Positions 1 to 31,928 are shown, numbered from the stretch's first letter. The stretch: 32,000 nt of DNA from Trichodesmium erythraeum IMS101 (GCF_000014265.1 NC_008312.1:3480001-3512000); one strand, 5' to 3'. The notes: generated from the sequence alone by a model not told the origin. Numbers and translations: made by a program.

Positions 1-319
1 CAAAATTTTGGTTTTCTGAAAAAATTTTTTTTAGTAAAAAAATAAGAGTAGAAAGTTGTGAATATGTTTGGTAAAGTTCTTCAATTAATGGATAGTCCTC
101 ACTAACAATTTTAACAAAATCAACAATAAGTTCTGTATTATTTAGCTCAATGATTAAATTAATCAACCTTGTATGATAGGTATCTCCTTTAATTTTATTA
201 TAAAAATTAGCTCCAAATTTCTCTGGATATTCAGAAAATATACTTGTCAGTTTATCCTCACTTAATACCTTTTCAATCTCTTCACGAAATTTGATTCTTT
301 GCTTATCAGTAAATTTCAT
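1..319 (-). CDS. Partial CDS (5' end only; continues past the left window edge). Its N-terminus is a diverged seventh copy of the ~83-aa helical adaptor-like module, fused to unknown downstream sequence
   Basis: The ATG at 317-319 has the same TTG-CAA-ATG context and the same 287-bp register as the five genes to its right. My hand translation is MKFTDKQRIKFREEIEKVLSEDKLTSIFSEYPEKFGANFYNKIKGDTYHTRLINLIIELNNTELIVDFVKIVSEDYPLIEELYQTYSQLSTLIFLLKKIFSENQNF. This frame has no stop down to base 2, whereas the other copies stop after YHNFAQDL. It is probably absent from the ORF track because it is open-ended. Confidence 0.5.
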   Translation of the reverse strand, partial: MKFTDKQRIKFREEIEKVLSEDKLTSIFSEYPEKFGANFYNKIKGDTYHTRLINLIIELNNTELIVDFVKIVSEDYPLIEELYQTYSQLSTLIFLLKKIFSENQNF

Positions 320-354: not shown

Positions 355-606
355 TTATAAATCTTGAGCAAAATTATGATACTCATACCTAACAACTTTA
401 ATAAAATCAAAAATAAGTTCTCTATTATTTAGCTCAATGATTAAATTAATCAACCTTGTACGATAGTCACCTCCTGGAATTTGATTATAAAAATTAGCTC
501 CAAATTTCTCTGGATATTCAGAAAATATACTTGTCAGTTTATCCTCACTTAATACCCTTTCAATCTCTTCACGAAATTTGATTCTTTGCTTATCAGTAAA
601 TTTCAT
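355..606 (-). CDS. Free-standing helical adaptor-like module, array copy 1 (83 aa from ATG, 85 aa from the TTG at 612); variant FGAN...PGGD
   Basis: ORF track 355..612. An ATG at 604-606 lies two codons inside the TTG start. The protein is near-identical to the last ~80 aa of the CHAT protein at 1790..3208. The heptad-like helical sequence resembles effector-associated/death-like adaptor domains (pattern recognition only). Confidence 0.75.
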   Translation of the reverse strand: MKFTDKQRIKFREEIERVLSEDKLTSIFSEYPEKFGANFYNQIPGGDYRTRLINLIIELNNRELIFDFIKVVRYEYHNFAQDL

Positions 607-641
607 TTGCAATGTACTTACATTACTATTTTATCTACTAT

Positions 642-893
642 TTATAAATCTTGAGCAAAATTATGATACTCATACCTAACAACTTTAATAAAATCAAAAA
701 TAAGTTCTCTATTATTTAGCTCAATGATTAAATTAATCAACCTTGTACGATAGTTATCTCCAGAAATTTGATTATAAAAATTATCTCCAAATTTCTCTGG
801 ATATTCAGAAAATATACTTGTCAGTTTATCCTCACTTAATACCCTTTCAATCTCTTCACGAAATTTGATTCTTTGCTTATCAGTAAATTTCAT
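642..893 (-). CDS. Free-standing helical adaptor-like module, array copy 2; variant FGDN...SGDN
   Basis: ORF track 642..899, exactly 287 bp from copy 1. The ORF is intact and differs from its neighbours only in the loop patch at 753-764. Confidence 0.75.
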   Translation of the reverse strand: MKFTDKQRIKFREEIERVLSEDKLTSIFSEYPEKFGDNFYNQISGDNYRTRLINLIIELNNRELIFDFIKVVRYEYHNFAQDL

Positions 894-928
894 TTGCAAT
901 GTACTTACATTACTATTTTATCTACTAT

Positions 929-1180
929 TTATAAATCTTGAGCAAAATTATGATACTCATACCTAACAACTTTAATAAAATCAAAAATAAGTTCTCTATT
1001 ATTTAGCTCAATGATTAAATTAATCAACCTTGTACGATAGTCACCTCCTGGAATTTGATTATAAAAATTATCTCCAAATTTCTCTGGATATTCAGAAAAT
1101 ATACTTGTCAGTTTATCCTCACTTAATACCCTTTCAATCTCTTCACGAAATTTGATTCTTTGCTTATCAGTAAATTTCAT
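929..1180 (-). CDS. Free-standing helical adaptor-like module, array copy 3; variant FGDN...PGGD (same protein as copy 4 and as the CHAT C-terminus over the shared region)
   Basis: ORF track 929..1186, in 287-bp register, ORF intact. Confidence 0.75.
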   Translation of the reverse strand: MKFTDKQRIKFREEIERVLSEDKLTSIFSEYPEKFGDNFYNQIPGGDYRTRLINLIIELNNRELIFDFIKVVRYEYHNFAQDL

Positions 1181-1215
1181 TTGCAATGTACTTACATTAC
1201 TATTTTATCTACTAT

Positions 1216-1467
1216 TTATAAATCTTGAGCAAAATTATGATACTCATACCTAACAACTTTAATAAAATCAAAAATAAGTTCTCTATTATTGAGCTCAATG
1301 ATTAAATTAATCAACCTTGTACGATAGTCACCTCCTGGAATTTGATTATAAAAATTATCTCCAAATTTCTCTGGATATTCAGAAAATATACTTGTCAGTT
1401 TATCCTCACTTAATACCCTTTCAATCTCTTCACGAAATTTGATTCTTTGCTTATCAGTAAATTTCAT
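1216..1467 (-). CDS. Free-standing helical adaptor-like module, array copy 4; variant FGDN...PGGD
   Basis: ORF track 1216..1473, in 287-bp register. It carries one synonymous Leu change (CTA to CTC, base 1291) that it shares with copy 5. Confidence 0.75.
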   Translation of the reverse strand: MKFTDKQRIKFREEIERVLSEDKLTSIFSEYPEKFGDNFYNQIPGGDYRTRLINLIIELNNRELIFDFIKVVRYEYHNFAQDL

Positions 1468-1502
1468 TTGCAATGTACTTACATTACTATTTTATCTACT
1501 AT

Positions 1503-1754
1503 TTATAAATCTTGAGCAAAATTATGATACTCATACCTAACAACTTTAATAAAATCAAAAATAAGTTCTCTATTATTGAGCTCAATGATTAAATTAATCA
1601 ACCTTGTACGATAGTTATTTCCAGAAATTTGATTATAAAAATTATCTCCAAATTTCTCTGGATATTCAGAAAATATACTTGTCAGTTTATCCTCACTTAA
1701 TACCCTTTCAATCTCTTCACGAAATTTGATTCTTTGCTTATCAGTAAATTTCAT
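1503..1754 (-). CDS. Free-standing helical adaptor-like module, array copy 5; variant FGDN...SGNN
   Basis: ORF track 1503..1760, in 287-bp register. Its loop patch is at 1614-1625. Confidence 0.75.
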   Translation of the reverse strand: MKFTDKQRIKFREEIERVLSEDKLTSIFSEYPEKFGDNFYNQISGNNYRTRLINLIIELNNRELIFDFIKVVRYEYHNFAQDL

Positions 1755-1789
1755 TTGCAATGTACTTACATTACTATTTTATCTACTAT

Positions 1790-3193
1790 TTATAAATCTT
1801 GAGCAAAATTATGATACTCATACCTAACAACTTTAATAAAATCAAAAATAAGTTCTCTATTATTTAGCTCAATGATTAAATTAATCAACCTTGTACGATA
1901 GTCACCTCCTGGAATTTGATTATAAAAATTATCTCCAAATTTCTCTGGATATTCAGAAAATATACTTGTCAGTTTATCCTCACTTAATACCCTTTCAATC
2001 TCTTCACGAAATTTTCTTCTTTGTTCCCCCGTTAAACTCAAGAAACCATTTTTTTTCTGAGTTATCTCCATAGATTCTTTGGCAAATAAATAACCATCTA
2101 AAGCATTCATAAACACAACAGGAATTGCAAAATCTCTTGCCTCATAACCCTTCTCAATACGCAACTTAAACCGAGCCTTCTGTACCGCCATCTCAACAGA
2201 ATTACCATCTATTATTTTTGAATAAAACTCCTTCACAAAAATAATCGCCGTTTGATTAGAAACCTTATATTGCATAGCTATAACCACCGGAATTCCCTCA
2301 AGCATTAAGCGAGAAGCCAGACTACTAAAAGCATTAGTTTCAGATTGTTTTCCAGTTTCACAAGCTTGTAAAATCACAACTTTAGGTTGATGACCAGTAA
2401 ACAATTGACAAAACATTTTAGCATCTTTCCAATCAGCTTCACCAAACTCATTAACAAAAGCAACCTGTCCTAAATCTTCTCCATTTTTCTCAACTAATTG
2501 ACCGTGACCAATAAAATGAAAAATATCCGGTTTCTCAGTTTCTAATCTTTCTACAATACTATAGAAATCTAGAGAATTCATAACAGGTAAAAATTTAACT
2601 TGCTCCTGTTTAGTATCTATACTTTTTAAGTATTTATGTACCTCATAATATTCCACATCACTTAATCCAGAATCAGCCGTCGGTTTCGAGACAACTAAAG
2701 CAATTTTTAACTGTTCATCCTGATTAATTTTAATAGATAATTTATTTGATTCTTCTAATTGATATCTACGACGGTAAAAACTTAATTTACGATTAGTAGC
2801 GAAATAAATTTGACCTTGATTATATTTCTCAGGTAAACACATTAACTCCCAAGGATAAGCTACAACTTCCGGCATAGCTTCCTCATTTATTTCTAAAATA
2901 ATTCCCAAATTTGCATCCTGTTGTTTGAGAATATCTTGATAGTATGCCAAAAAATATTCTCTTAACTGAGCATCAAACAAAGCCTCAAACAAAGCTTCTC
3001 CCACCTTAGTAATTTGTTCACCTTTCAAATTAGTAGGAGCTTTAATAATTTCTCTAATCTTATCGTTAATTTTGTCAAGATTTAACTTACCTATTAACTG
3101 CTCTTTAGTAGCTAACTGAGGAGTTAATTTTATGAGTTTAACCGTATTTTCATTAGAAACAATAACATTACAAAAACATTGATTCATCGTCAT
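1790..3193 (-). CDS. CHAT-domain (caspase-fold, clan CD-like) cysteine protease with a C-terminal helical adaptor-like module (about aa 392-472, nt 1793-2035)
   Basis: ORF track 1790..3208 starts at a TTG. ATGs at 3191-3193 and 3185-3187 are more likely starts. The His motif DIFHFIGHG has its GHG His codon at 2504-2506. The Cys motif VVILQACETG has its Cys codon at 2360-2362. Both match the CHAT/caspase catalytic dyad as I remember it. The C-terminal sequence EQRRKFREEIERVLSEDK...YHNFAQDL equals the downstream small genes. Confidence 0.85.
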   Translation of the reverse strand: MTMNQCFCNVIVSNENTVKLIKLTPQLATKEQLIGKLNLDKINDKIREIIKAPTNLKGEQITKVGEALFEALFDAQLREYFLAYYQDILKQQDANLGIILEINEEAMPEVVAYPWELMCLPEKYNQGQIYFATNRKLSFYRRRYQLEESNKLSIKINQDEQLKIALVVSKPTADSGLSDVEYYEVHKYLKSIDTKQEQVKFLPVMNSLDFYSIVERLETEKPDIFHFIGHGQLVEKNGEDLGQVAFVNEFGEADWKDAKMFCQLFTGHQPKVVILQACETGKQSETNAFSSLASRLMLEGIPVVIAMQYKVSNQTAIIFVKEFYSKIIDGNSVEMAVQKARFKLRIEKGYEARDFAIPVVFMNALDGYLFAKESMEITQKKNGFLSLTGEQRRKFREEIERVLSEDKLTSIFSEYPEKFGDNFYNQIPGGDYRTRLINLIIELNNRELIFDFIKVVRYEYHNFAQDL

Positions 3194-3224: not shown

Positions 3225-4160
3225 CTACAGTTTTGGTAAGCTAATTTGTTTTTCCCACTGACTAGTCCATTCTTCCTTTATCCCAACCGCAAAACTCTTA
3301 GCTGCTTTATCTTTACTCCCAAACAAATTTTTTAAATGACCTGGTAAACTTGATATTACATGAGTTAATTCACCATTCAACCAATCAATGTTAGGTTCAA
3401 TCCAAGCATGACCAATTAAATCAATAAACTCCCATCCCTTAGGAACCTTAAAAATAACGCTAAATTCTACAGTAGACTTATCCTGAATTTCTGGTTTTTC
3501 AAGCCGCCATTCACACCAAGAATTATTTTCCCCATGAGCAGAGATATTAAACTTACCAAATCGATAATTTAAACTATCAAAAACAATAAAAGTTTTAAAT
3601 TTATTTTTAGCTCTTAAATCAACTTTTAATTGATCATAATTAGGAAGATTAGCTATTTTCATTAACTCAGAACTATCACCTCCAACTCCCACATCCAAGT
3701 TAGCATCTAATCCTAAATTAAAGTTAACTCCTGCACTTAATATTGTTTGCCATTTACTATCTGGAATAATACGATGAACTATTGGCTCCTCTTTTCCTTG
3801 AGCACCAAAATCAAGCCGACATTCTAACTTTGAAATTAAAACACTTGGTTGAGGTCTTAGATCAATACTCACAACCATAGAATAGAAATCAAACCGCTTC
3901 ATTAACTGTTTAACTTCGTAATTTAACTCTATTCCTTCTGCTTCAAAACCTTTTGCAGTAAGAGGAATTAATCTACTATCAGGATTACCAAAAGTAACAG
4001 TAGTTTCCTTCAATCTTTTAACCGCAGTTGCTCCTCTTTTTAACTCTTGAGCTTCCCCTCCCCCTAACTCATTTTCCTGGCTTTTTACTTTTTCAAATAA
4101 ATCATTAAGTAAATCTTCTGCCTTCTCAAAATTAGGTAGATTCAATTTCTGATTTGTCAT
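3225..4160 (-). CDS. Uncharacterised 311-aa protein with a charged helical N-terminus followed by a beta-rich body; first gene of the CHAT cluster
   Basis: ORF track, ATG at 4158-4160. It stops 31 nt upstream of the CHAT ATG on the same strand. I recognise no family motif. I see no N-terminal signal peptide or TM segment. Confidence 0.7.
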   Translation of the reverse strand: MTNQKLNLPNFEKAEDLLNDLFEKVKSQENELGGGEAQELKRGATAVKRLKETTVTFGNPDSRLIPLTAKGFEAEGIELNYEVKQLMKRFDFYSMVVSIDLRPQPSVLISKLECRLDFGAQGKEEPIVHRIIPDSKWQTILSAGVNFNLGLDANLDVGVGGDSSELMKIANLPNYDQLKVDLRAKNKFKTFIVFDSLNYRFGKFNISAHGENNSWCEWRLEKPEIQDKSTVEFSVIFKVPKGWEFIDLIGHAWIEPNIDWLNGELTHVISSLPGHLKNLFGSKDKAAKSFAVGIKEEWTSQWEKQISLPKL

Positions 4161-10517: not shown

Positions 10518-13144
10518 TATCAAGTCTTTATATTTTTTTTTGTAGATAGTTAAGAATAAAAAATCATACTGGGAATTAGATAAGGTAAACAGATCTTATA
10601 TTTTTTTCTTTAGAACTGCCCGTGTTGAGTCGTACTTGCGCCATTGTTACTATAAGTGGCCGAGTTCCTGATCAGCCAATTCCTATCTAGGTATTGTCAA
10701 TTAACCTCTGTCACTAAAAGCGAGGTCTCAAACCTCTTATTTCAGGGTTCGGAGAAAAAAATCAACTTTAATATTTCAATCTGGATGTTGAGCACTGCTA
10801 GGTACTGACAACTAATAGATAAATGCTAATAACTAAGATGTCATGTTTAGTAAAAGCGTTTACAAGAAGAGCTGATAAAAATCGGGATATACTTCTAATA
10901 TAGACAAATCTTTACTATGTATTTTTAACAAACGTTAGCACTTTAAATCAGAGCATAAATTTAGATGGAAAAAAAATTAAACTAGAAAAACTATGATACA
11001 AACCAATTTTTCTGAAGCGCAGGAGCATTGTGAAGCGCGAAGAAAATCTTGATCGAAGTTTTTGGGACTTAGAATGCAGTTTAGACTGGGGCTATGCTTG
11101 AAAACTTAATAGATGCTAAAGTAGTATATTTGACTACTGCTCATAAAAATTGGAAAGAATATATGCTCTACTGGAATCAGATAATTAAAGATTTTATCGT
11201 ATAGATTTTGGCTATAGTAATGGTAACAATGCTTTATGGTTATCGTAACAAAAAGGCTCTAAAGTAATACGAGTTAATACTAGTAGTGGGTCTAGTTTGA
11301 AAAGTGTGGGTGAAAAAACCTAGCTCCTCCTTAAAAAGGGGTTGACTGTTTTATTAAGTGTGAAAAACACAAGAGGTTAAGGGGTGTAGATTTAATTTGT
11401 TCGCTCCTTACCGAAAATTTTAGTCATATAGTTCTAGTAGCTGGAGAAACAATACCATTTATCAAAAACTCTTCAAAGGGGGATTTTGATTAGAATTAGG
11501 GACATTGTCTGCAATGTTTAGTAAAACACCACCTAAGATTAACATTAATTTAGCTGCAAAAAAGTTATTTCCTTTGTGTTAATCATTTTGAATTATTATT
11601 CAATAACAGAAGTTTGACAAAAAGTTAGCATTAATACATAAGAATTGGTATGATTTAGTTAAAAAAAAAATTACAGCTCGGAAGCCTTCTGAATGTGCCA
11701 GTTTTTCAAAGTCAAGAGCAAAGCTTGACGATCTGCTTGGCAGATATGGAAGGGGATATTTATGCTAGTTTAGCGATCGCTCCACTAGAGCTCAAAACTA
11801 TGATCTAGCGAAATGAAGATAACTGATAAGCAAAAAGCCAATAACTAATTAGGACTTACTCAGGCACTACCTTATATAGTAGGAAGAAGAACAACCTTAA
11901 CACACCTAATTTTGGTGTATAGTTACACTTTGAATACATAATATTATGTCCGCCTGAATACTTATACTTTTACTTTGGTGGATAATTTTTCTGCTTTATT
12001 TTTATAGGAAATTTTTATGCTGTGGCGATCGCTCTATGGCCAAACTCTAGGACAGTGAATGCACAAGCTGATATTAAGACAGATAGAGTTCCTAATGCTT
12101 GTTGGTTATAGAGAAAACTTAAGAGTTTGCTTTCTCAGTATCAGTATTATTGCCTTTTCATCTCAGGGATAGCTGACACCTAAGCTACTGGACTGACACA
12201 GCTAAAATGGTGCAATAAATTGGGGTTGGGTTGAAAGACATTAGCAAAGCTTATCCTTAGAATAAACTAAACCAGAATAAAGCACATATTGGATTTCACT
12301 TAGTTCTATAAGAGCTTACATTCTTAAGGGAGTCAGTCCATTAGTCTAGATTTAATATTACTTTGACAAACAATGTCTAATCCCTATTTATTAATTGAGT
12401 GAGACATATAGTTAGGTTTGCATCTTACCATTCTAGTGTGTCACTTTTGCTTTTGCGACATGAAATACTTTTTTAGCGACTTGAAGTATGTATGTTAAAT
12501 AATTGGAGAATTTCAGCATAAATGCAAGATTCAGATGACCCAGACTGGGACAATTAAATATTTAACCTCTCCAAAAATGCTAATTTGGTAACGACGGGAT
12601 CAGATTTTGGGAATCTTTTGGTGGAGATATCTATTAGGTAAATGCTTACCACCTTTATCTTGCTTTATCTTGTTGAGCTTTAATGGTTCTTTTCCCTTCA
12701 GTTCATACCATGCTTATGCTTAAGTTAGCTTTTGTGTTGTTTTTTGAGTAAAATTGGCAAGCCATATCAAAGATTTGTTCTTAATAGTTAATAAAAATAT
12801 TATTTATTTCGTTGTGATGTGCCTAAATATAGCAAATGAGCAAGCAAACGACACACAAGGGAAATTACGATAATTATAAAAGTTCAGACATCTTGCACGG
12901 TAGATGTGTACCTCACAGACAATGGGAAACGCTTTAAATATCTTTATTTAGGATAGCATCTAAACTTATGGAATTTTTCCTATGAGAGATACTGATCATA
13001 GCATAATATTCTATAATAGAAAGCCAAACTACACCAGATGGTTAAGGCCGGGATTTATCTCGTACTGACGCTATCCCTTGCAGGCGTAGGGCTTTTGCCG
13101 GATAAAGCTAAACTTTATAATACTATAAAAGCAGGATTAAATAT

Positions 13145-14536: not shown

Positions 14537-14626
14537 AATTATAAATTGTTGGAAAAGTAGGGGACGATATAGTTTAATTAATGGGCAAAAGTTAAAATTT
14601 AAAAGTTAAAATGTAAAAGTCTAGTA

Positions 14627-14689
14627 GGGTGCTTTATACAGACCTAATTCAGGGTATAAAAACTATTTAAAAATATATCGTAACGCACC
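14627..14689. repeat. Small palindromic element GTAGGGTGC...ACGCACCATTT, copy 1, downstream of asnS
   Basis: GGTGC (14628-14632) is complementary to GCACC (14685-14689). The element shares both conserved ends with the copy at 18749-18796. Confidence 0.4.
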
Positions 14690-16048
14690 ATTTATATTTC
14701 TTAAGTCTACTACTTTTCGCAAAATTTATAGTGTTCCCACAGTTTAATGGTAAGTAGATAATATACATAATATATAATCCTATTTTGCTAATAGTCAAAA
14801 TGATAATTTGCCTGAAGCTATTAATGCATTATCTATGGGAGGTTTGGTTGGCAAGTAATGTTAGGATATAATATCTTTAATTAGATCAATAAAAAAACGA
14901 TATTTGATATAAAATTATGGTTTATAAATAGAATAAATTTAAATAATTGAGTCAATTAATGTTAAAAGTTTGTGTTAATTACCCAGATTTTATCAACAGT
15001 AAAGTTTACATTAGGCAAAGCTTAAATTATGTTAGTTTAACTGCACTGAAAACTATGGGCAATTTCATAATTATTTGCAGCAGTTTACTGGTAAATTTCC
15101 AGACATTTTTGAGGAATATTCACCAAGCAAACTTCAAGATCGTTATTCTGGTGTTGGTAAATTAACATCAAAAAATCTAAATATGGCTAAACATAAATTT
15201 TTTTTCAGTTAATAGTTAGGCGATCGCTATTAAAGGATAATCACGTGCCAAAATCACTAACACCCTGATTTTGAGCATAGAGCATATAAGAGAATTTTTA
15301 CTTATTGGTCATATTTAATTGTTATATTAGACATTTCTATGAGGAGAAATATACAGGGCATTCGGTGGTTTATGAGGTACAGTAGTAACAGTGTTGAAAA
15401 TATTGTTTGAAGTGGTTAGTCTTTAAACAAAAGTACAGTAGAAAATATTATACCAACCATTTTTGCAGTGGTAGTCTGAAACTGATACAAAAAAAATGTT
15501 CTTATGTAAATTTCAGTCTATTAATACTATACTTAGGGCTTTATGAAAAACTATGCATGGGTTCGCCTATAACTCAGAACTCAGGAGTATTTTATCCCCC
15601 CTTCCTCCTCCTGAAAATCCTCTGTTGAAGATAAAAGATAGAAATAGAAAAGTTTTTGATAAATGGTTGAAACTCTAGAGCAGATTTCATCAATGGTGAT
15701 GTAAGGTTTTAACAGGCAATATTATTTTACTACAAAGGTTTGATCATTAATATTTATACAACATAAATTTGGAATTCCCTATAAACTTAGCTTGTTAATA
15801 AGTCGATCAAGTCCTCAGTGATAGGACAACCTGTTTACTTTTTAAAATGAAAAAATATTGGATTAAGAAAGAGGGAAATAAACAAATATCTAAATATTCA
15901 GCTATTATTTATTTTCCCATAATAGCTTATGTGATATTGATTCTAGTTCAACTTTATACTTAATACTTATTATAGTTATGAAAAGTAACTAAGATACCTT
16001 TTAAAATTTTCTATCAACCCATATTAATTTAGTAGATATTAATCATAG

Positions 16049-20065: not shown

Positions 20066-20350
20066 TGTAAGCATTCAGCTCTTTAGCAGTCAGCTTAAGC
20101 GCTTTTCCTAGACCATTGTGCGCAAAAAAAGATGAAGTTGAGCTGCTGATCTTTTTTATGTCGAACTTTTCATTCTTCTTGGAAGCTCATTATTTTTTCT
20201 AGCTAATTTGGAGCAGTCAGCTTGAGGGCTTTTCCTGAAAAATACGGGAAAAAAAGATAAAGTTGAGCTGCTTATCTTTTCGGTGTCAGACTTTTAATTC
20301 TTCTTACAAGCTAATTCCTCTAGCTGATAACTGATAGCTGAATCCTTACA
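20066..20350. repeat. Element bounded by inverted repeats and containing two 127-bp tandem units (MITE-like or a structured RNA locus)
   Basis: The inverted repeats are TGTAAGCATTCAGC (20066-20079) and GCTGAATCCTTACA (20337-20350), matching at 13 of 14 positions. The tandem units start at 20085 and 20212. A solo left end with a partial unit lies at 19888-19925. Confidence 0.6.
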
Positions 20351-20438: not shown

Positions 20439-20727
20439 TTTTTTTGATAATTAGTATTAGCTATTAATTGATAGTTTGCTCTGTAGCAATTATTATTAAT
20501 ATATTTAAGGATAATTAAAAGTATTATAAAAAAAATCCCAAGAATTTTTTTTTACTTTAATATGTTTAAAAAAATGAACTTTTTTTTGATAATTAGCATT
20601 GGCTATTAATTGATAGTCTGCTCTGTAGCAATTATTATTAATATATTTAAGGATGATTAAAAGTATTATAAAAAAATCCCAAGAATTTTTTTTTACTATC
20701 CATTTTAATATGTTAAAAAAAATGAAC
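20439..20727. repeat. Tandem duplication of a very AT-rich unit of about 141-148 bp
   Basis: Copy 1 is 20439-20579 and copy 2 is 20580-20727. They are near-identical apart from a few substitutions and a 7-bp insertion (atccatt) in copy 2. Confidence 0.8.
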
Positions 20728-27803: not shown

Positions 27804-30800
27804 GTGTCTAAAGTTGCTACTAAAAATATTACATTCTGGAATACTACTGGTTATAATTATCCAGGATTTGGCAAAACCGTAGAAGTCCCTGATGGCCTAG
27901 GTGGCACAATAAGTATTACTTATAATCAAATTGATTATAATGACCGTAACTGGAAAGCCAAACCAGATGGCAGTGTTCCTGTGACAGAAAATCGCTTCCT
28001 CTCAGGAGAAGTAGGGAATAATTTTAGCTTAACAGGCCAAGTACAAGGCATAACTGCTACTATGCCTCTTATAAGAACTCTAGGAGCTGAAAATAACTAT
28101 TCTGTCACTTTAGATTTTAGTAAATACAAAGCCTCCGCAGGAGGTTCAAAAGCAACTGATGGTGCAACCTCTGGTGACACCTATTTAGCCATATCAAGAT
28201 TTTTTAACGGTAGCAAAACTGGATATACAACCATTAAAGTCACTGCAAGAACTCTCGATGGTAGCGAACTTAACCTAGGTGATTGGAAATTATTCAACAG
28301 TGGAACTCTCGGCCAAGGCAATAATGCTCGGATATTCTTAAATGCAGCTACTCAAATTCTTTCTGGTAAAAACTCTCAAGGCAAACCAGAATTCTGCCCA
28401 ACTCCACCTAACCCAAACTCTTCTCTTGGTAAAGGCACAGGGCTAGGTTTATTTGAGTTAGCAAGTAATCAACGTTATGTATCTATTACTCTTAGCTTTA
28501 AACAAAAAAAAATTACAGGTTCTTTGCCTAATGATTTACACGATATTTATGTTGCTAGCAATACTAGTTCTACAAGTCCAATTGATGTAACTCCTCCACC
28601 GATGGATATAAATCGTGGTTTACAAGTACATTTGCCATTGAATGAAATAGTCAAAAATGCCGAATCAAAAAAAGAAGTAGTTGATATTTCAGGAGCTCAA
28701 GTTAATGGCAAAGTTAATGGTGCAAAAGTTGTCGCCGACTCAAAATTTGGTCATTGTCTAAGTTTTGATGGGGTGGATGACTATCTTGAACTACCAACAG
28801 CAACTATTCCTCAAACAGGGGCAATCACAATTAGTTTTTGGGCTAATGGTGATAACTCTTTACCCAAGGATAATTCCATAATAGCTGCATACGACCAAAG
28901 TAATAACAGGGTGATTAATATTCATTTACCTTGGAATAATAGTTACATTTACTTTGATTGTGGAAATACGGGAAACAGTTATGACAGAATAGAAAAATTA
29001 GCTAAAGCTGCTGATTTTAAAGGGAAATGGACTCACTGGGTATTTACGAAGAATGTTACCACTGGAGAGATGAAGATATATCTCAATGGTGCTTTATGGA
29101 GTAGTGGTAAGGATAAGAGTAAGCAAATAAGTGGCATGACCCTGGTGAAGCTTGGTTCTGGTTATGGATTTTATCATGGTCAAGTTGCTCATCTGCGAAT
29201 TTATGACCGAGTGTTGTCTGCAGAAGAAATTAACGAATGTATGAAGGTGGATGTAACTCCTCCACCGATGGATATAAATCGTGGTTTACAAGTACATTTG
29301 CCATTGAATGAAATAGTCAAAAATGCCAAATCAAAAAAAGAAGTAGTTGATATTTCAGGAGCCCAACTCAATGGCAAAGTTAATGGTGCAAAAGTTGTCG
29401 CCGACTCAAAATTTGGTCATTGTCTAAGTTTTGATGGGGTGGATGACTATCTTGAACTACCAACAGCAACTATTCCTCAAACAGGGGCAATCACAATTAG
29501 TTTTTGGGCTAATGGTGATAACTCTTTACCCAAGGATAATTCCATAATAGCTGCATACGACCAAAGTAATAACAGGGTGATTAATATTCATTTACCTTGG
29601 AATAATAGTTACATTTACTTTGATTGTGGAAATACGGGAAACAGTTATGACAGAATAGAAAAATTAGCTAAAGCTGCTGATTTTAAAGGGAAATGGACTC
29701 ACTGGGTATTTACGAAGAATGTTACCACTGGAGAGATGAAGATATATCTCAATGGTGCTTTATGGAGTAGTGGTAAGGATAAGAGTAAGCAAATAAGTGG
29801 CATGACCCTGGTGAAGCTTGGTTCTGGTTATGGATTTTATCATGGTCAAGTTGCTCATCTGCGAATTTATGACCGAGTGTTGTCTGCAGAAGAAATTAAC
29901 GAATGTATGAAGGTGGATGTAACTCCTCCACCGATGGATATAAATCGTGGTTTACAAGTACATTTGCCATTGAATGAAATAGTCAAAAATGCCAAATCAA
30001 AAAAAGAAGTAGTTGATATTTCAGGAGCCCAACTCAATGGCAAAGTTAATGGTGCAAAAGTTGTCGCCGACTCAAAATTTGGTCATTGTCTAAGTTTTGA
30101 TGGGGCGGATGACTATCTTGAACTACCAACAGCAACTATTCCTCAAACAGGGGCAATCACAATTAGTTTTTGGGCTAATGGTGATAACTCTTTACCCAAG
30201 GATAATTCCATAATAGCTGCATACGACCAAAGTAATAACAGGGTGATTAATATTCATTTACCTTGGAATAATAGTTACATTTACTTTGATTGTGGAAATA
30301 CGGGAAACAGTTATGACAGAATAGAAAAATTAGCTAAAGCTGCTGATTTTAAAGGGAAATGGACTCACTGGGTATTTACGAAGAATGTTACCACTGGAGA
30401 GATGAAGATATATCTCAATGGTGCTTTATGGAGTAGTGGTAAGGATAAGAGTAAGCAAATAAGTGGCATGACCCTGGTGAAGCTTGGTTCTGGTTATGGA
30501 TTTTATCATGGTCAAGTTGCTCATCTGCGAATTTATGACCGAGTGTTGTCTACAGAAGAAATTAACGAATGTATGAAGGTGGATGGTACCGATGCCACAT
30601 CAACTACTGATGAGACTGATACCATATCAACTAATGATGTTACTGATGTCACCCCAACTACTGATGGTACTGATACCACATCAACTACTGATGGGACTGA
30701 TACCACACCAACTACTGGTGGGACTGACACCACACCAACTACTAGTGAGACTGATACCACACCAACTACTGATGGGACTGATACCACATTAACTACTGAT

Positions 30801-31928
30801 AGGACTGGTACCACATCAACTACTGATATTACTGATGCCACATCAACTACTGATGGGACTGGTACCACATCAACTACTGATGGAACTGATACCACACCAA
30901 CTACTGATGGAACTGATACCACATTAACTACTGGTGGTAATGATACCACATCAACTAATGATGTTACTGATGCCACATCAACTACTGATGGGACTGGTAC
31001 CACATCAACTACTGGTGGTAATGATACCGCATCAACTAATGATGTTACTGTTACCACACCAACTACTGATGGGACTGATACCACATTAACTACTGATGGG
31101 ACTGTTACCACACCAACTACTGATGGGACTGGTACCACATCAACTACTGATGGGACTGTTACCACATCAACTACTGGTGGGACTGATACCACACCAACTA
31201 CTGATGGGACTGATACCACACTAACTACTGATGGGACTGATACCACATTAACTACTGATAGGACTGGTACCACATCAACTACTGATATTACTGATGCCAC
31301 ATCAACTACTGATGGGACTGGTAACACATCAACTACTGATGGGACTGGTACCACATCAACTACTGATGGAACTGATACCACATTAACTACTGGTGGTAAT
31401 GATACCACATCAACTACTGGTGGTAATGATACCACATCAACTACTGGTGGTAATGATACCGCATCAACTACTGGTGGTAATGATACCACACCAACTACTG
31501 ATGGTACTGATACCACATCAACTACTGGTGGGACTGATACCATATCAACTACTGATGGTACTGATACCACATTAACTACTGGTGGTAATGATACCACATC
31601 AACTAGTGATGTTACTGATGCCACATCAACTACTGATAGTACTGATACAACCCAAAAACCTATGGAATATCAGATTTATCAGGTAAAAGGTAATCCCACA
31701 ATTAAAACCGGATATCAAGGATCAGAATGGACTGCAGTTATTGCTGGATTTAATTGCGGAGCAAAGAAGAAACACAAAGCAACAGCATTCACTATCATGC
31801 CTGTTCTAGATGATGGAGAATGGAAAATTAAGTGCGATATTAAGGATGTAGATGATCGCTATTGGGATGTAGCAGTTCTATTTATCAGGAACAACATGGT
31901 AAATATGTTAAACCATTTTCACCGTTAA
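27804..31928 (+). CDS. Large repetitive protein (1374 aa): unknown N-terminal domain, three LamG/ConA-like (Laminin_G_3-type) domains, a Thr-rich nonapeptide stalk, and an unknown C-terminal domain
   Basis: The GTG start at 27804 has a GGAG at 27791-27794. The LamG signature recurs three times: CLSFDG.DDYLELP, ITISFWANGD, KWTHWVFTKN, MKIYLNGAL and GQVAHLRIYDRVLSAEEI. I see no obvious N-terminal signal peptide. Confidence 0.9.
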   Translation: MSKVATKNITFWNTTGYNYPGFGKTVEVPDGLGGTISITYNQIDYNDRNWKAKPDGSVPVTENRFLSGEVGNNFSLTGQVQGITATMPLIRTLGAENNYSVTLDFSKYKASAGGSKATDGATSGDTYLAISRFFNGSKTGYTTIKVTARTLDGSELNLGDWKLFNSGTLGQGNNARIFLNAATQILSGKNSQGKPEFCPTPPNPNSSLGKGTGLGLFELASNQRYVSITLSFKQKKITGSLPNDLHDIYVASNTSSTSPIDVTPPPMDINRGLQVHLPLNEIVKNAESKKEVVDISGAQVNGKVNGAKVVADSKFGHCLSFDGVDDYLELPTATIPQTGAITISFWANGDNSLPKDNSIIAAYDQSNNRVINIHLPWNNSYIYFDCGNTGNSYDRIEKLAKAADFKGKWTHWVFTKNVTTGEMKIYLNGALWSSGKDKSKQISGMTLVKLGSGYGFYHGQVAHLRIYDRVLSAEEINECMKVDVTPPPMDINRGLQVHLPLNEIVKNAKSKKEVVDISGAQLNGKVNGAKVVADSKFGHCLSFDGVDDYLELPTATIPQTGAITISFWANGDNSLPKDNSIIAAYDQSNNRVINIHLPWNNSYIYFDCGNTGNSYDRIEKLAKAADFKGKWTHWVFTKNVTTGEMKIYLNGALWSSGKDKSKQISGMTLVKLGSGYGFYHGQVAHLRIYDRVLSAEEINECMKVDVTPPPMDINRGLQVHLPLNEIVKNAKSKKEVVDISGAQLNGKVNGAKVVADSKFGHCLSFDGADDYLELPTATIPQTGAITISFWANGDNSLPKDNSIIAAYDQSNNRVINIHLPWNNSYIYFDCGNTGNSYDRIEKLAKAADFKGKWTHWVFTKNVTTGEMKIYLNGALWSSGKDKSKQISGMTLVKLGSGYGFYHGQVAHLRIYDRVLSTEEINECMKVDGTDATSTTDETDTISTNDVTDVTPTTDGTDTTSTTDGTDTTPTTGGTDTTPTTSETDTTPTTDGTDTTLTTDRTGTTSTTDITDATSTTDGTGTTSTTDGTDTTPTTDGTDTTLTTGGNDTTSTNDVTDATSTTDGTGTTSTTGGNDTASTNDVTVTTPTTDGTDTTLTTDGTVTTPTTDGTGTTSTTDGTVTTSTTGGTDTTPTTDGTDTTLTTDGTDTTLTTDRTGTTSTTDITDATSTTDGTGNTSTTDGTGTTSTTDGTDTTLTTGGNDTTSTTGGNDTTSTTGGNDTASTTGGNDTTPTTDGTDTTSTTGGTDTISTTDGTDTTLTTGGNDTTSTSDVTDATSTTDSTDTTQKPMEYQIYQVKGNPTIKTGYQGSEWTAVIAGFNCGAKKKHKATAFTIMPVLDDGEWKIKCDIKDVDDRYWDVAVLFIRNNMVNMLNHFHR
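28584..30581 (+). repeat. Three tandem 666-bp (222-codon) repeats, each encoding one LamG-type domain, more than 99% identical
   Basis: Unit starts (GATGTAACTCCTCCACCG) are at 28584, 29250 and 29916. The only protein differences are E/K, V/L, V/A and A/T. Confidence 0.95.
30583..31652 (+). repeat. About 40 tandem 27-bp repeats encoding the Thr-rich nonapeptide T-T-[STPL]-T-T-[DG]-G-T-[DG]
   Basis: The unit is of the type ACCACATCAACTACTGATGGGACTGAT. A block of 17 units (459 bp) is duplicated: GATAGGACTGG occurs at 30798 and again at 31257. Confidence 0.95.

Follow-up and report, generated by a model that had tools for sequence, protein, structure and literature searches.

In Trichodesmium erythraeum IMS101, a conflict operon contains a tandem array of stand-alone adaptor genes that, in what we consider the probable account, arose by crossing-over between the adaptors of two neighboring genes; gene conversion would have homogenized the copies, their few variable sites would be recombination markers, and the free copies would act as adaptor-only competitors or bridges. 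Within the window (the whole 32,000-nt stretch analyzed, NC_008312.1:3480001-3512000, with positions counted from its first letter), Tandem Repeats Finder reported an array of period 287 bp at 102-2023 (6.7 copies, 97% matches). The five free module copies match Tery_2231 to Tery_2235 exactly.

Array units and their differences

One array unit comprises the 3' part of a tail-type domain, a stop codon, a 35-nt spacer, and a VMAP-type start with its first 11 codons. The free copies, each consisting of the EAD6 module only, lie on the minus strand at 355-606, 642-893, 929-1180, 1216-1467 and 1503-1754 (copies 1 to 5). We compared the 287-bp units column by column, taking unit 929-1215 as reference; its copy 3 carries the loop sequence PGGD (1040-1051), and its protein was recovered identically in Tara Oceans contigs. 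Unit 355-641 shows a single difference, at 497, where copy 1 (PGGD, 466-477) has Ala37 (GCT, 496-498), a residue shared with the VMAP head; the same protein occurs in an ALOHA MAG and one Tara contig. Unit 642-928 differs at 755, 757, 762 and 764, and copy 2 accordingly reads SGDN (TCT GGA GAT AAC, 753-764). The single difference of unit 1216-1502, at 1291, is a Leu codon CTC in copy 4 (PGGD, 1327-1338). Unit 1503-1789 differs at 1578 (again Leu CTC), 1616, 1618, 1619, 1623 and 1625, with copy 5 (Tery_2235 type) reading SGNN (TCT GGA AAT AAC, 1614-1625).

The C-terminal tail of the adjacent CHAT gene (1790-2038, minus strand, loop PGGD) matches the free copies exactly over 1790-2014 and departs from them from 2015 onward, so that the coding stretch common to all six copies is 225 nt and not the ~245 bases that an earlier note on this DNA had given. 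Over those 225 bases the six copies vary at seven sites and are otherwise identical. These are exactly the variable sites that note had listed, and the translations agree with its PGGD, SGDN and SGNN variants, its Ala in copy 1 and its NKIKGDTYH in the left-edge copy; the unit comparison likewise found the spacers invariant. Its spacer length of 29 nt holds for a TTG start, whereas the likely start is an ATG (giving 83 aa) 35 nt past the preceding stop. Where it had counted one silent difference, at the Leu codon, there are two, CTA/CTC and the third base of CCA/TCT, which brings the ratio of nonsynonymous to synonymous differences to 5:2. Five of the seven sites fall within 10 nt (12-nt window of 225 nt; permutation P ~4e-4). 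Copy number and order in IMS101 come from one assembly, other assemblies of the same species breaking or collapsing here.

The VMAP-type operon

By its gene content, the locus is a VMAP-type conflict operon (VMAP/AAA+/FGE-sulfatase) on the minus strand. Its genes run in the order 311-aa protein, CHAT protease with a C-terminal EAD6-like tail, five adaptor-only genes, and VMAP with an N-terminal EAD6-like head; an AAA+ ATPase and an FGE-sulfatase protein, the putative sensor, follow VMAP past the window edge. The CHAT (caspase-like) protease gene at 1790-3187 encodes 465 aa from its ATG, the length also annotated in independent assemblies (a longer ORF version starts at TTG 3208), and was recognized by Pfam (CHAT, 7.8e-22, residues 68-355) and by PADLOC (SAVED_CHAT, 1e-11). 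Its His (FIGHG) and Cys (QACETG) motifs are intact in translation, and a family HMM matched the equivalent tail in a related locus (L016). The VMAP gene (1-319, minus strand) is cut by the left window edge, leaving its first 108 codons, with edge-truncated Pfam matches to EAD6 (2e-4) and VMAP-M12 (8e-4): the EAD6-like head, with loop KGDT at 179-190 and Ala37 at 209-211, is followed by the first VMAP-M12 residues. The complete gene in the near-identical locus L001 matched VMAP-M12 (2.3e-92) and VMAP-C (3.5e-15). Downstream of VMAP, a 381-aa protein matched the generic models AAA, AAA_5 and AAA_2 (E 5e-8 to 3e-6) and no MoxR-specific model, and a 1196-aa protein matched FGE-sulfatase in two stretches (6e-113) and no vWA model at E ≤ 0.01. 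Rfam found no RNA family anywhere in the window.

A divergent EAD6 adaptor

We assign the module, from its sequence relationships, as a divergent EAD6 adaptor domain. Membership rests on transitive homology, because the window copies score below the 27-bit gathering threshold of Pfam EAD6 (PF19958): 16 bits (E 0.014) for a free copy and 21.9 bits (E 2e-4) for the VMAP head, each over 71 of the 75 model positions. A profile search with the module gathered 46 proteins, with relatives at E down to 1e-31, and Pfam EAD6 matched 30 of the 40 aligned family members (best 1.7e-19). Relatives carry the domain at the N-terminus of 460-520-aa VMAPs or at the C-terminus of CHAT, trypsin-like, TIR and cyclase proteins, the same terminal positions that the CHAT tail and VMAP head occupy within this one operon. 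Three proteins with multi-stretch matches in the representative search (P0053, P0071 and P0074) were rejected as unrelated repetitive proteins, not EAD arrays.

The EAD adaptor concept comes from Kaur, Burroughs, Iyer and Aravind 2020 (PMC7159879), where EAD-EAD binding that couples an effector to a core is a prediction; the searched literature gives no experimental demonstration of such binding. The Trichodesmium locus resembles the EAD6/VMAP ternary conflict systems described there (PMC7159879, PF19958) in having a small, all-helical, non-enzymatic domain, with one copy on the VMAP N-terminus and another on an adjacent peptidase gene, adjacent copies being more alike than distant ones, in an operon with an AAA+ ATPase and an FGE-sulfatase protein. 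It differs in that the domain also occurs as one to five unfused stand-alone genes, in a perfect tandem array, and in scoring under the Pfam threshold. Two papers from the Aravind group (PMC7159879 among them) describe EADs fused to core or effector domains; adaptor-only arrays are not described there.

An AlphaFold2 model of the module (pLDDT 93) is all-helical, with five helices in 83 residues, and the module matched no enzymatic family. The patch residues 44-47 sit just ahead of a predicted helix at 48-61, in agreement with the earlier suggestion of a loop between helices. In the family alignment variability is greatest at position 37 (3.8 bits), with position 44 one of the five most variable columns, and the variable positions of the loop alternate with conserved I43, G45 and Y48. 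We are thus confident, on the model, that the patch is an inter-helix loop at positions that vary family-wide. Membership of the Death-like superfamily (CARD/DD/DED/PYD) was rejected: the best Foldseek match against the PDB had a non-significant E of 3.6, the similarities to the Apaf-1 CARD (TM 0.52/0.48) and the caspase-8/cFLIP DED (0.49) were likewise not significant, and the model has five helices, not six. A profile search against PDB sequences gave nothing below E 0.15, where weak annexin-repeat matches appeared and were set aside.

Origin of the array

In a DNA alignment the free copies follow the VMAP type for the first ~55 columns and the tail type from there on; each, by this pattern, is a chimera of a VMAP-type 5' end and a CHAT-tail-type 3' end, the product expected when two adaptor sequences at a distance of 287 bp cross over unequally. 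We therefore strongly infer from the sequences that the array originated by unequal crossing-over of the CHAT-tail and VMAP-head adaptors. In the ancestral layout the VMAP-head adaptor would have lain ~37 nt after the CHAT-tail adaptor, the two forming direct repeats ~287 bp apart. A crossing-over would then have yielded a chimeric stand-alone gene, in which spacer, start and codons 1-11 are VMAP-type whereas codons 12-83 and the stop are tail-type; more rounds would have led to the five copies in IMS101, and continuing gene conversion would hold them identical.

Other genomes present layouts of both kinds. In Okeania (L025) and a metagenome contig (L032) the head comes straight after the tail and no free copy lies at the locus, while T. 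erythraeum assemblies from Tara and ALOHA have the tail, at least one free copy, and an unconverted head. In the IMS101/GBR lineage, gene conversion would also have overwritten the greater part of the VMAP head: when L022 is compared with L001, identity is 72-80% over the initial 270 nt of VMAP and 96-100% over the remainder. The loci L001 and L003 are joined otherwise, with no free copy or with a CHAT::VMAP fusion; these may be collapsed assemblies or else real deletions. Among JGI metagenomes a pattern spanning the patch had no matches, and a looser one found one contig, from a different cyanobacterium; a scan of genome contigs with the close alignment as query returned only the Trichodesmium sp. 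MAG_R02 locus. A phage origin, or a phage-encoded decoy, was rejected, neither 50,697 phage records nor IMG/VR giving a match.

Concerted evolution of tandem arrays by unequal crossing-over and gene conversion is familiar from rDNA and from bacterial repeat families. The present array shares with it near-identical copies that form a mosaic of few markers, all four marker combinations, and a copy number that varies between strains or assemblies. Pure neutral homogenization would not predict that the surviving differences concentrate in one loop that varies family-wide, although homogenization can produce this.

Recombination mosaic or selection on the loop

The patch alleles have counterparts outside the array. 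The "S" patch TCTGGAGATAAC matches exactly, down to its silent base, the VMAP-head allele carried by wild T. erythraeum strains. Its codons TCT GGA GAT AAC, reported for the copies starting at 642 and 1503, share the silent T with that wild allele and are one silent base off the CHAT-tail allele of T. thiebautii-like genomes. The Ala37 codon is the VMAP-type state and is found in free copies from the wild as well. Patch type and Leu codon occur in all four possible combinations, which indicates recombination within the array. The few differences between copies thus look like recombination between two old loop versions, judged from the sequences, rather than proven diversifying selection: TCT-GGA-GAT-AAC would be an old 'head-type' allele and CCA-GGA-GGT-GAC the 'tail-type' one, GAT>AAT and CTA>CTC would be single mutations, and the seven variable sites would be recombination markers plus one or two point mutations. 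The differences probably survive in the loop because it holds the least constrained positions of the family, directly after the most conserved DNA island (NFYNQI). Of the readings offered in the earlier note, mosaic conversion between two allelic types fits best, with patch alleles that match the wild head, and its view that recombination homogenized the remainder of each unit is supported.

A possible alternative, of lesser probability, is that the array is a neutral and recent by-product of repeat instability, the free copies having no role and the loop varying as the least constrained segment. The five copies resemble each other too closely to reveal purifying selection and could thus be neutral duplicates; dN/dS over the whole domain is 0.6-0.75 in the orthologous comparison; and the syntenic T. 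thiebautii-like locus is decaying. The T. erythraeum genome is only ~60% coding, with other long tandem arrays (PMC4143802), and is rich in repeats and pseudogenes. Against neutrality, several wild assemblies, independent and from different oceans, and a second lineage (L018) have at least one intact free copy; in IMS101 the five free ORFs, the partner genes and the catalytic motifs of CHAT are all intact; and each copy carries the VMAP translation start.

We think it unlikely that diversifying or balancing selection acts on the loop (residues 37, 44, 46 and 47) as a specificity surface of the adaptor, with copies serving distinct partners. Homogenization would then erase neutral differences, while selection kept or repeatedly created those in the loop. 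The significant clustering of the variable sites agrees with this, as do the confidently modeled loop with its alternation of variable and conserved residues, the occurrence of Pro44 in the tail and Ser44 in the head at 3 of 4 related loci, and the further wild loop variants (PGDD, PGGE, SGSS and R49L). So does the overwritten IMS101 VMAP head, whose remaining differences from the free copies lie mainly in the loop and are, all 13 of them, nonsynonymous (chance of zero synonymous ~0.06). However, the excess of amino-acid changes from which the earlier note had argued for diversifying selection disappears when sites are counted: 5 nonsynonymous and 2 synonymous differences stand against 180 and 42 sites (4.3:1), a dN/dS of ~0.6 by Nei-Gojobori counts, which is indistinguishable from neutrality. 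The independent events, only about four, are too few for any codon test to have power. In the orthologous comparison dS in the loop is roughly twofold higher and dN likewise, pointing to older alleles or weaker homogenization rather than faster amino-acid change. The silent base accompanies the patch and the S allele is already present elsewhere, so this allele would have been imported or retained, not newly selected; and residue 44 follows no consistent head/tail rule across the family.

That the variants or the copy number are assembly or sequencing chimeras in the IMS101 record is very improbable. Short-read assemblies of the same species do end, gap (100 N) or collapse at exactly the array site, and S-type free copies occur only in IMS101; but a true multi-copy repeat would itself break assemblies, the variant bases reproduce real alleles of independent wild assemblies and so are not random errors, and P-type free copies with D37 and with A37 were each recovered independently outside the IMS101 record. 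We dismiss a diversity-generating retroelement (DGR) or other templated mutator as writer of the 12-nt patch: T. erythraeum does carry an active-type DGR with 12 or more targets (PMC4143802), and the FGE-sulfatase protein of the operon is of a class targeted by DGRs, but DGR variable regions are C-terminal FGE-sulfatase/C-type-lectin domains of ~17 codons whereas the patch is 4 codons in an unrelated helical domain, the window holds neither a template repeat nor, among its ORFs, a reverse transcriptase, and the S allele is a fixed haplotype common to several lineages.

A possible role for the free copies

Each free copy has the VMAP translation start and the array contains no terminator, so the copies are probably co-expressed. 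A separate promoter and terminator for each unit was rejected, promoter-like matches being at chance level. No paper in the searchable literature mentions the locus tags Tery_2229 to Tery_2237, and the search found no expression or protein data for Tery_2231 to Tery_2235.

The human CARD-only proteins COP/CARD16, INCA/CARD17 and ICEBERG/CARD18 are encoded next to CASP1, and pyrin-only proteins are comparable. By analogy with these we infer a decoy or bridging role: as adaptor-only proteins the free copies would compete in, or bridge, the EAD-EAD contact through which CHAT is coupled to VMAP, and their number would set the threshold for activation, in the way that CARD-only proteins act on caspase-1. 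In both cases adaptor-only genes derive from local duplication of the adaptor part of a neighboring caspase-type protease, and competition in homotypic adaptor assembly is expected, on the Trichodesmium side by analogy. Homology has no support from Foldseek, whose similarities to CARD, DED and DD are non-significant (E > 3, TM ~0.5), and unlike CARD-only genes the Trichodesmium copies would be chimeras from unequal crossing-over of the adaptors of two genes.

A more elaborate version is decidedly speculative: P-type (PGGD) copies would mimic the CHAT tail and S-type (SGDN/SGNN) copies the ancestral VMAP head, the two serving as dosage-tunable decoys or bridges, with the loop a specificity determinant protected from homogenization. 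They would set the threshold of an inflammasome-like cascade running from the FGE-sulfatase sensor through AAA+/VMAP and EAD assembly to the CHAT protease and the hemolysin-like pore protein. If true, prokaryotes would have, in these genes, a counterpart of CARD-only regulators that arose through unequal crossing-over.

EADs are proposed bacterial counterparts of Death-fold adaptors, an idea that is purely computational in the literature searched. The locus amounts to a natural experiment in which the adaptor stands apart from both partners and has been amplified in two loop types; IMS101 is culturable and known for caspase-linked cell death, while wild relatives carry one copy and the sister genus none, so the adaptor hypothesis is directly testable here. 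It would also illustrate the one-step birth of adaptor-only regulators from two adjacent homotypic domains. For genome scanning it offers a caution, namely, that where a small patch within a repeat array seems to hold too many amino-acid changes, the pattern can be a recombination mosaic; claims of selection in such arrays first need a synonymous-site baseline and outgroup alleles.

A candidate effector beside CHAT

The first gene of the operon (3225-4160, minus strand) is an ORF for a conserved 311-aa protein with no Pfam or PADLOC match. Homologues at 55-77% identity occur in filamentous cyanobacteria, and their genes adjoin a CHAT gene in all three contexts examined. Its AlphaFold2 model (pLDDT 77; disordered segment 179-200) gave 54 Foldseek matches in the PDB at E ≤ 1e-3, nearly all to alpha-hemolysin/leukocidin beta-pore-forming toxins (best 9.5e-6, probability 1.0), with TM of only 0.25-0.35 and large rmsd; at the sequence level it matched none of these toxins. 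The predicted fold resembles that of beta-barrel pore-forming toxins, and the protein is a candidate effector paired with CHAT.

Bacterial gasdermin-protease pairs offer an analogue. As in these, the gene for a ~300-aa putative pore-forming protein directly adjoins that of a caspase-like protease in a conflict locus; unlike gasdermin, the predicted fold resembles alpha-hemolysin/leukocidin, at low TM, and PADLOC gasdermin models gave no match. In T. thiebautii-like genomes, at the decaying syntenic locus, the CHAT gene is pseudogenized and the gene for the 311-aa protein has been lost.

Organization of the locus

The locus belongs to the VMAP-type conflict systems described by Kaur et al. 2020 (PMC7159879); section 30 of that paper proposes that small effector-associated domains (EADs) carried by a core protein and by an adjacent enzyme couple the two through homotypic binding. 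Its genes all lie on the minus strand: an ORF for a 311-aa protein (3225-4160), the CHAT protease gene (Pfam CHAT, 7.8e-22) whose last ~83 residues are the adaptor module (the tail), five genes that encode the module only (the free copies, named by unit start as 355, 642, 929, 1216 and 1503), and the start of a longer protein that opens with another 83-residue copy of the module (the head), a VMAP-M12 match beginning next. Near-identical longer assemblies contain the full VMAP gene (VMAP-M12, 2.3e-92; VMAP-C, 3.5e-15) and, downstream of it, an AAA+ ATPase and a protein of 1196 aa in which two stretches match FGE-sulfatase. The free copies match Tery_2231 to Tery_2235 of Trichodesmium erythraeum IMS101 exactly. 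By translation their ORFs are intact, with ATG the likely start (83 aa), as are the His/Cys motifs of CHAT; no terminator was found within the array, and DNA alignment places the VMAP spacer and start in every free copy. Computational work has already described both this type of system and its adaptor family; a description of tandem arrays consisting of adaptors alone was found neither in two Aravind-group papers nor elsewhere in the literature that could be searched.

Assignment of the adaptor module to EAD6

Against Pfam EAD6 the module scores 16-22 bits, below the 27-bit threshold. A profile of the module retrieved 46 proteins, where the domain is either N-terminal, in VMAPs, or C-terminal, in CHAT, trypsin-like, TIR and cyclase proteins, and EAD6 was matched by 30 of 40 aligned members (best 1.7e-19). 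We assign the sub-threshold module to EAD6 because of these relatives and matches together with a confident AlphaFold2 model (pLDDT 93; helices at residues 5-18, 21-30, 32-35, 48-61 and 65-75). The PDB yielded no significant structural or sequence relative, and a Death fold was rejected, its matches in PDB structure comparison being weak (TM ~0.5, E>3). Some relatives, such as the 346-aa P0042, join an N-terminal EAD1-like domain (judged by eye) to a C-terminal EAD6-like domain, and at one compared locus (L013, 514-711) the ORF that comes after an EAD6 tail has the N-terminal sequence of such proteins; proteins of this kind could act as bridges between two sorts of EAD.

Variation among array units

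Tandem Repeats Finder places the array at 102-2023 (period 287 bp, 6.7 copies, 97% matches). Column-by-column comparison of the five free units and the CHAT tail gave variable positions at 497; 755, 757, 762, 764; 1291; 1578; and 1616, 1618, 1619, 1623, 1625, with no differences in the spacers between units. An earlier note, made from sequence by eye, had listed these same sites with invariant spacers, and its list, like the 287-bp period, stands. Three points are corrected: the shared coding stretch is 225 nt rather than ~245 nt (the tail equals the free units over 1790-2014 and diverges from 2015 onward), translation of the free copies probably begins at the ATG, and the Leu change is not the only silent difference, the third base of CCA/TCT being a second of silent type.

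By translation, the 12-nt patch encoding residues 44-47 reads PGGD (P-type) in the tail and copies 355, 929 and 1216, SGDN in copy 642 and SGNN in copy 1503 (both S-type); the VMAP head at the left edge has NKIKGDTYH. Outside the patch, copy 355 has Ala for Asp, and copies 1216 and 1503 have Leu codon CTC for CTA. Five of the seven variable sites in the 225 shared coding bases fall within 10 nt (permutation test, p ~4e-4). The loop variants would be told apart by k-mers CAAATTTCTGGAGATAACTATCGT, CAAATTTCTGGAAATAACTATCGT and CAAATTCCAGGAGGTGACTATCGT, with an expected ratio of ~1:1:4 in IMS101 reads, and tryptic peptides FGDNFYNQIPGGDYR, FGDNFYNQISGDNYR, FGDNFYNQISGNNYR and FGANFYNQIPGGDYR discriminate among adaptor variants. 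The patch had been predicted to be a loop between helices, and in the AlphaFold2 model residues 43-47 do form a loop directly before helix 4, and residue 37 belongs to that long connector too. Across the aligned family, variability peaks at position 37 (3.8 bits), position 44 ranks about fourth and positions 46 and 47 show average variability, while I43, G45 and Y48 are conserved.

We read this variation as concerted evolution in which loop alleles that already existed form a mosaic in the segment under least constraint. The S-type patch of copy 642 (TCT GGA GAT AAC) is identical to the allele carried by wild T. erythraeum heads, within a 33-nt identical stretch, and lies one silent base from a T. 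thiebautii-like tail allele (TCT GGA GAT AAT), while another lineage has the intermediate CCA GGA GAT GAC (PGDD); both loop types are thus old alleles, and of the two explanations offered in the earlier note, mosaic conversion and diversifying selection, the former gains support from the presence of S-type alleles in wild heads and T. thiebautii-like tails. Ala37 (GCT) is likewise what the neighbouring VMAP head has, and it occurs in wild free copies (an ALOHA MAG and a Tara contig). The CTA>CTC change is common to two adjacent copies of differing patch type, and each patch type is found with each Leu codon, so that all four pairings occur and either recombination or recurrent mutation is needed to account for them. 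Wild proteins also vary elsewhere than at the patch (I15V, an N-terminal GKKL mosaic, R49L).

Selection keeping tail-type and head-type loops distinct is possible. Pro44 in the tail with Ser44 in the head is seen at three of four related loci, with no such rule family-wide, and between the IMS101 head and the free copies there are 13 nonsynonymous differences and no synonymous one, a count suggestive of selection (chance of zero synonymous ~0.06). The counts do not support diversifying selection: in the array, 5 nonsynonymous-type against 2 synonymous-type sites, out of 180 against 42, give dN/dS ~0.6, and in orthologous tails the loop (codons 36-49) has ~2x the dS and ~2x the dN of the remainder, with dN/dS ~0.6-0.7 in both.

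Origin of the array

A simple layout is found in Okeania sp. KiyG1 and in a single metagenome contig: ~37-39 nt separate the protease-tail EAD from the VMAP-head EAD, and neither has a free copy between tail and head. Wild T. erythraeum-clade assemblies (Tara Oceans, ALOHA) run from tail through at least one free copy to a head strongly diverged from the tail; the one copy is a lower bound, because identical repeats would be merged in short-read assembly. When all units were aligned as DNA, each free copy proved to be chimeric, with spacer, start and first 11 codons of VMAP type and the remainder through the stop codon of tail type, the product expected of unequal crossing-over between direct repeats 287 bp apart. 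Comparing VMAP between locus L022 and the IMS101-like assembly L001, the first 270 nt are 72-80% identical and the remainder 96-100%: the head has been overwritten by free/tail-type sequence in the IMS101/GBR lineage. At position 270 the IMS101 head has Lys (AAG) where all free copies and an otherwise identical Great Barrier Reef MAG (L002, 12540 region) have Arg (AGG), a strain-specific point change in adaptor helix 1.

Assemblies with flanks 99.9-100% identical to IMS101 have, at the array, a contig end, a 100-N gap, no free copy or a CHAT::VMAP fusion. L003 (7355-10024) has an in-frame fusion of 889 aa, L001 (10974-13930) a VMAP with a P-type loop in its head directly after CHAT, and L002 (12188-12287) the 100-N gap. 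These differing resolutions of the array are probably collapsed repeats, but they may be real deletion alleles.

In T. thiebautii-like genomes the 311-aa gene is gone and CHAT has become a pseudogene, leaving only the tail ORF and VMAP. Their syntenic locus (L007, 1200-2280; L006, 8709-11027) is decaying, with many stop codons in CHAT and the catalytic His replaced; the remaining tail ORF is 84-90 aa, and VMAP and the AAA+ gene are truncated in some contigs. On metagenome contig L012 (103-1013), a Te-type module end precedes a second, more diverged stand-alone EAD with a PGGE loop, and the next ORF has an ATP-dependent DNA-ligase-like KLDGIR motif in place of VMAP, an arrangement that could be a rearranged locus or a mobile element insertion.

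Proposed role of the free copies

Judging from sequence, the free copies would be co-transcribed, and translated roughly like VMAP; their adaptor-only products, P-type identical to the CHAT tail and S-type with a head-type loop, would either compete with the contact between tail and head or form a bridge in it. Free-copy number would then tune protease activation. In this proposed role the free copies resemble, by analogy, the CARD-only proteins that adjoin CASP1.

The upstream 311-aa protein

Directly upstream of CHAT, the 311-aa protein has relatives of 55-77% identity across filamentous cyanobacteria; a search for a family match found none. Its gene adjoins a CHAT gene in each of the three contexts examined, where that CHAT accompanies a VMAP system, accompanies an iSTAND system or stands alone. 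The model (pLDDT 77) gave 54 Foldseek matches at E<=1e-3, nearly all to alpha-hemolysin/leukocidin toxins, with TM only 0.25-0.35. In translation the segment GVNFNLGLDANLDVGVGG alternates hydrophobic and polar residues and would fit a membrane hairpin. We offer as a lead that this protein may be a candidate protease-activated pore effector.

Other features of the window

Two stretches (10518-13144 and 14537-16048) have no ORF of at least 80 aa and no Rfam match, consistent with the low coding density reported for the T. erythraeum genome (PMC4143802). Between the Peptidase_M48 and DUF4330 genes sit two intergenic tandem repeats, at 20085-20316 (period 125, 1.8 copies, 80% matches) and 20439-20697 (period 142, 1.8 copies, 95% matches). 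A 27-nt tandem repeat at 30582-31648 on the plus strand (39.5 copies, 86% matches) encodes a 9-residue repeat region inside ORF 27804-31928, whose 1374-aa product has three Laminin_G_3 (concanavalin-like lectin) stretches.
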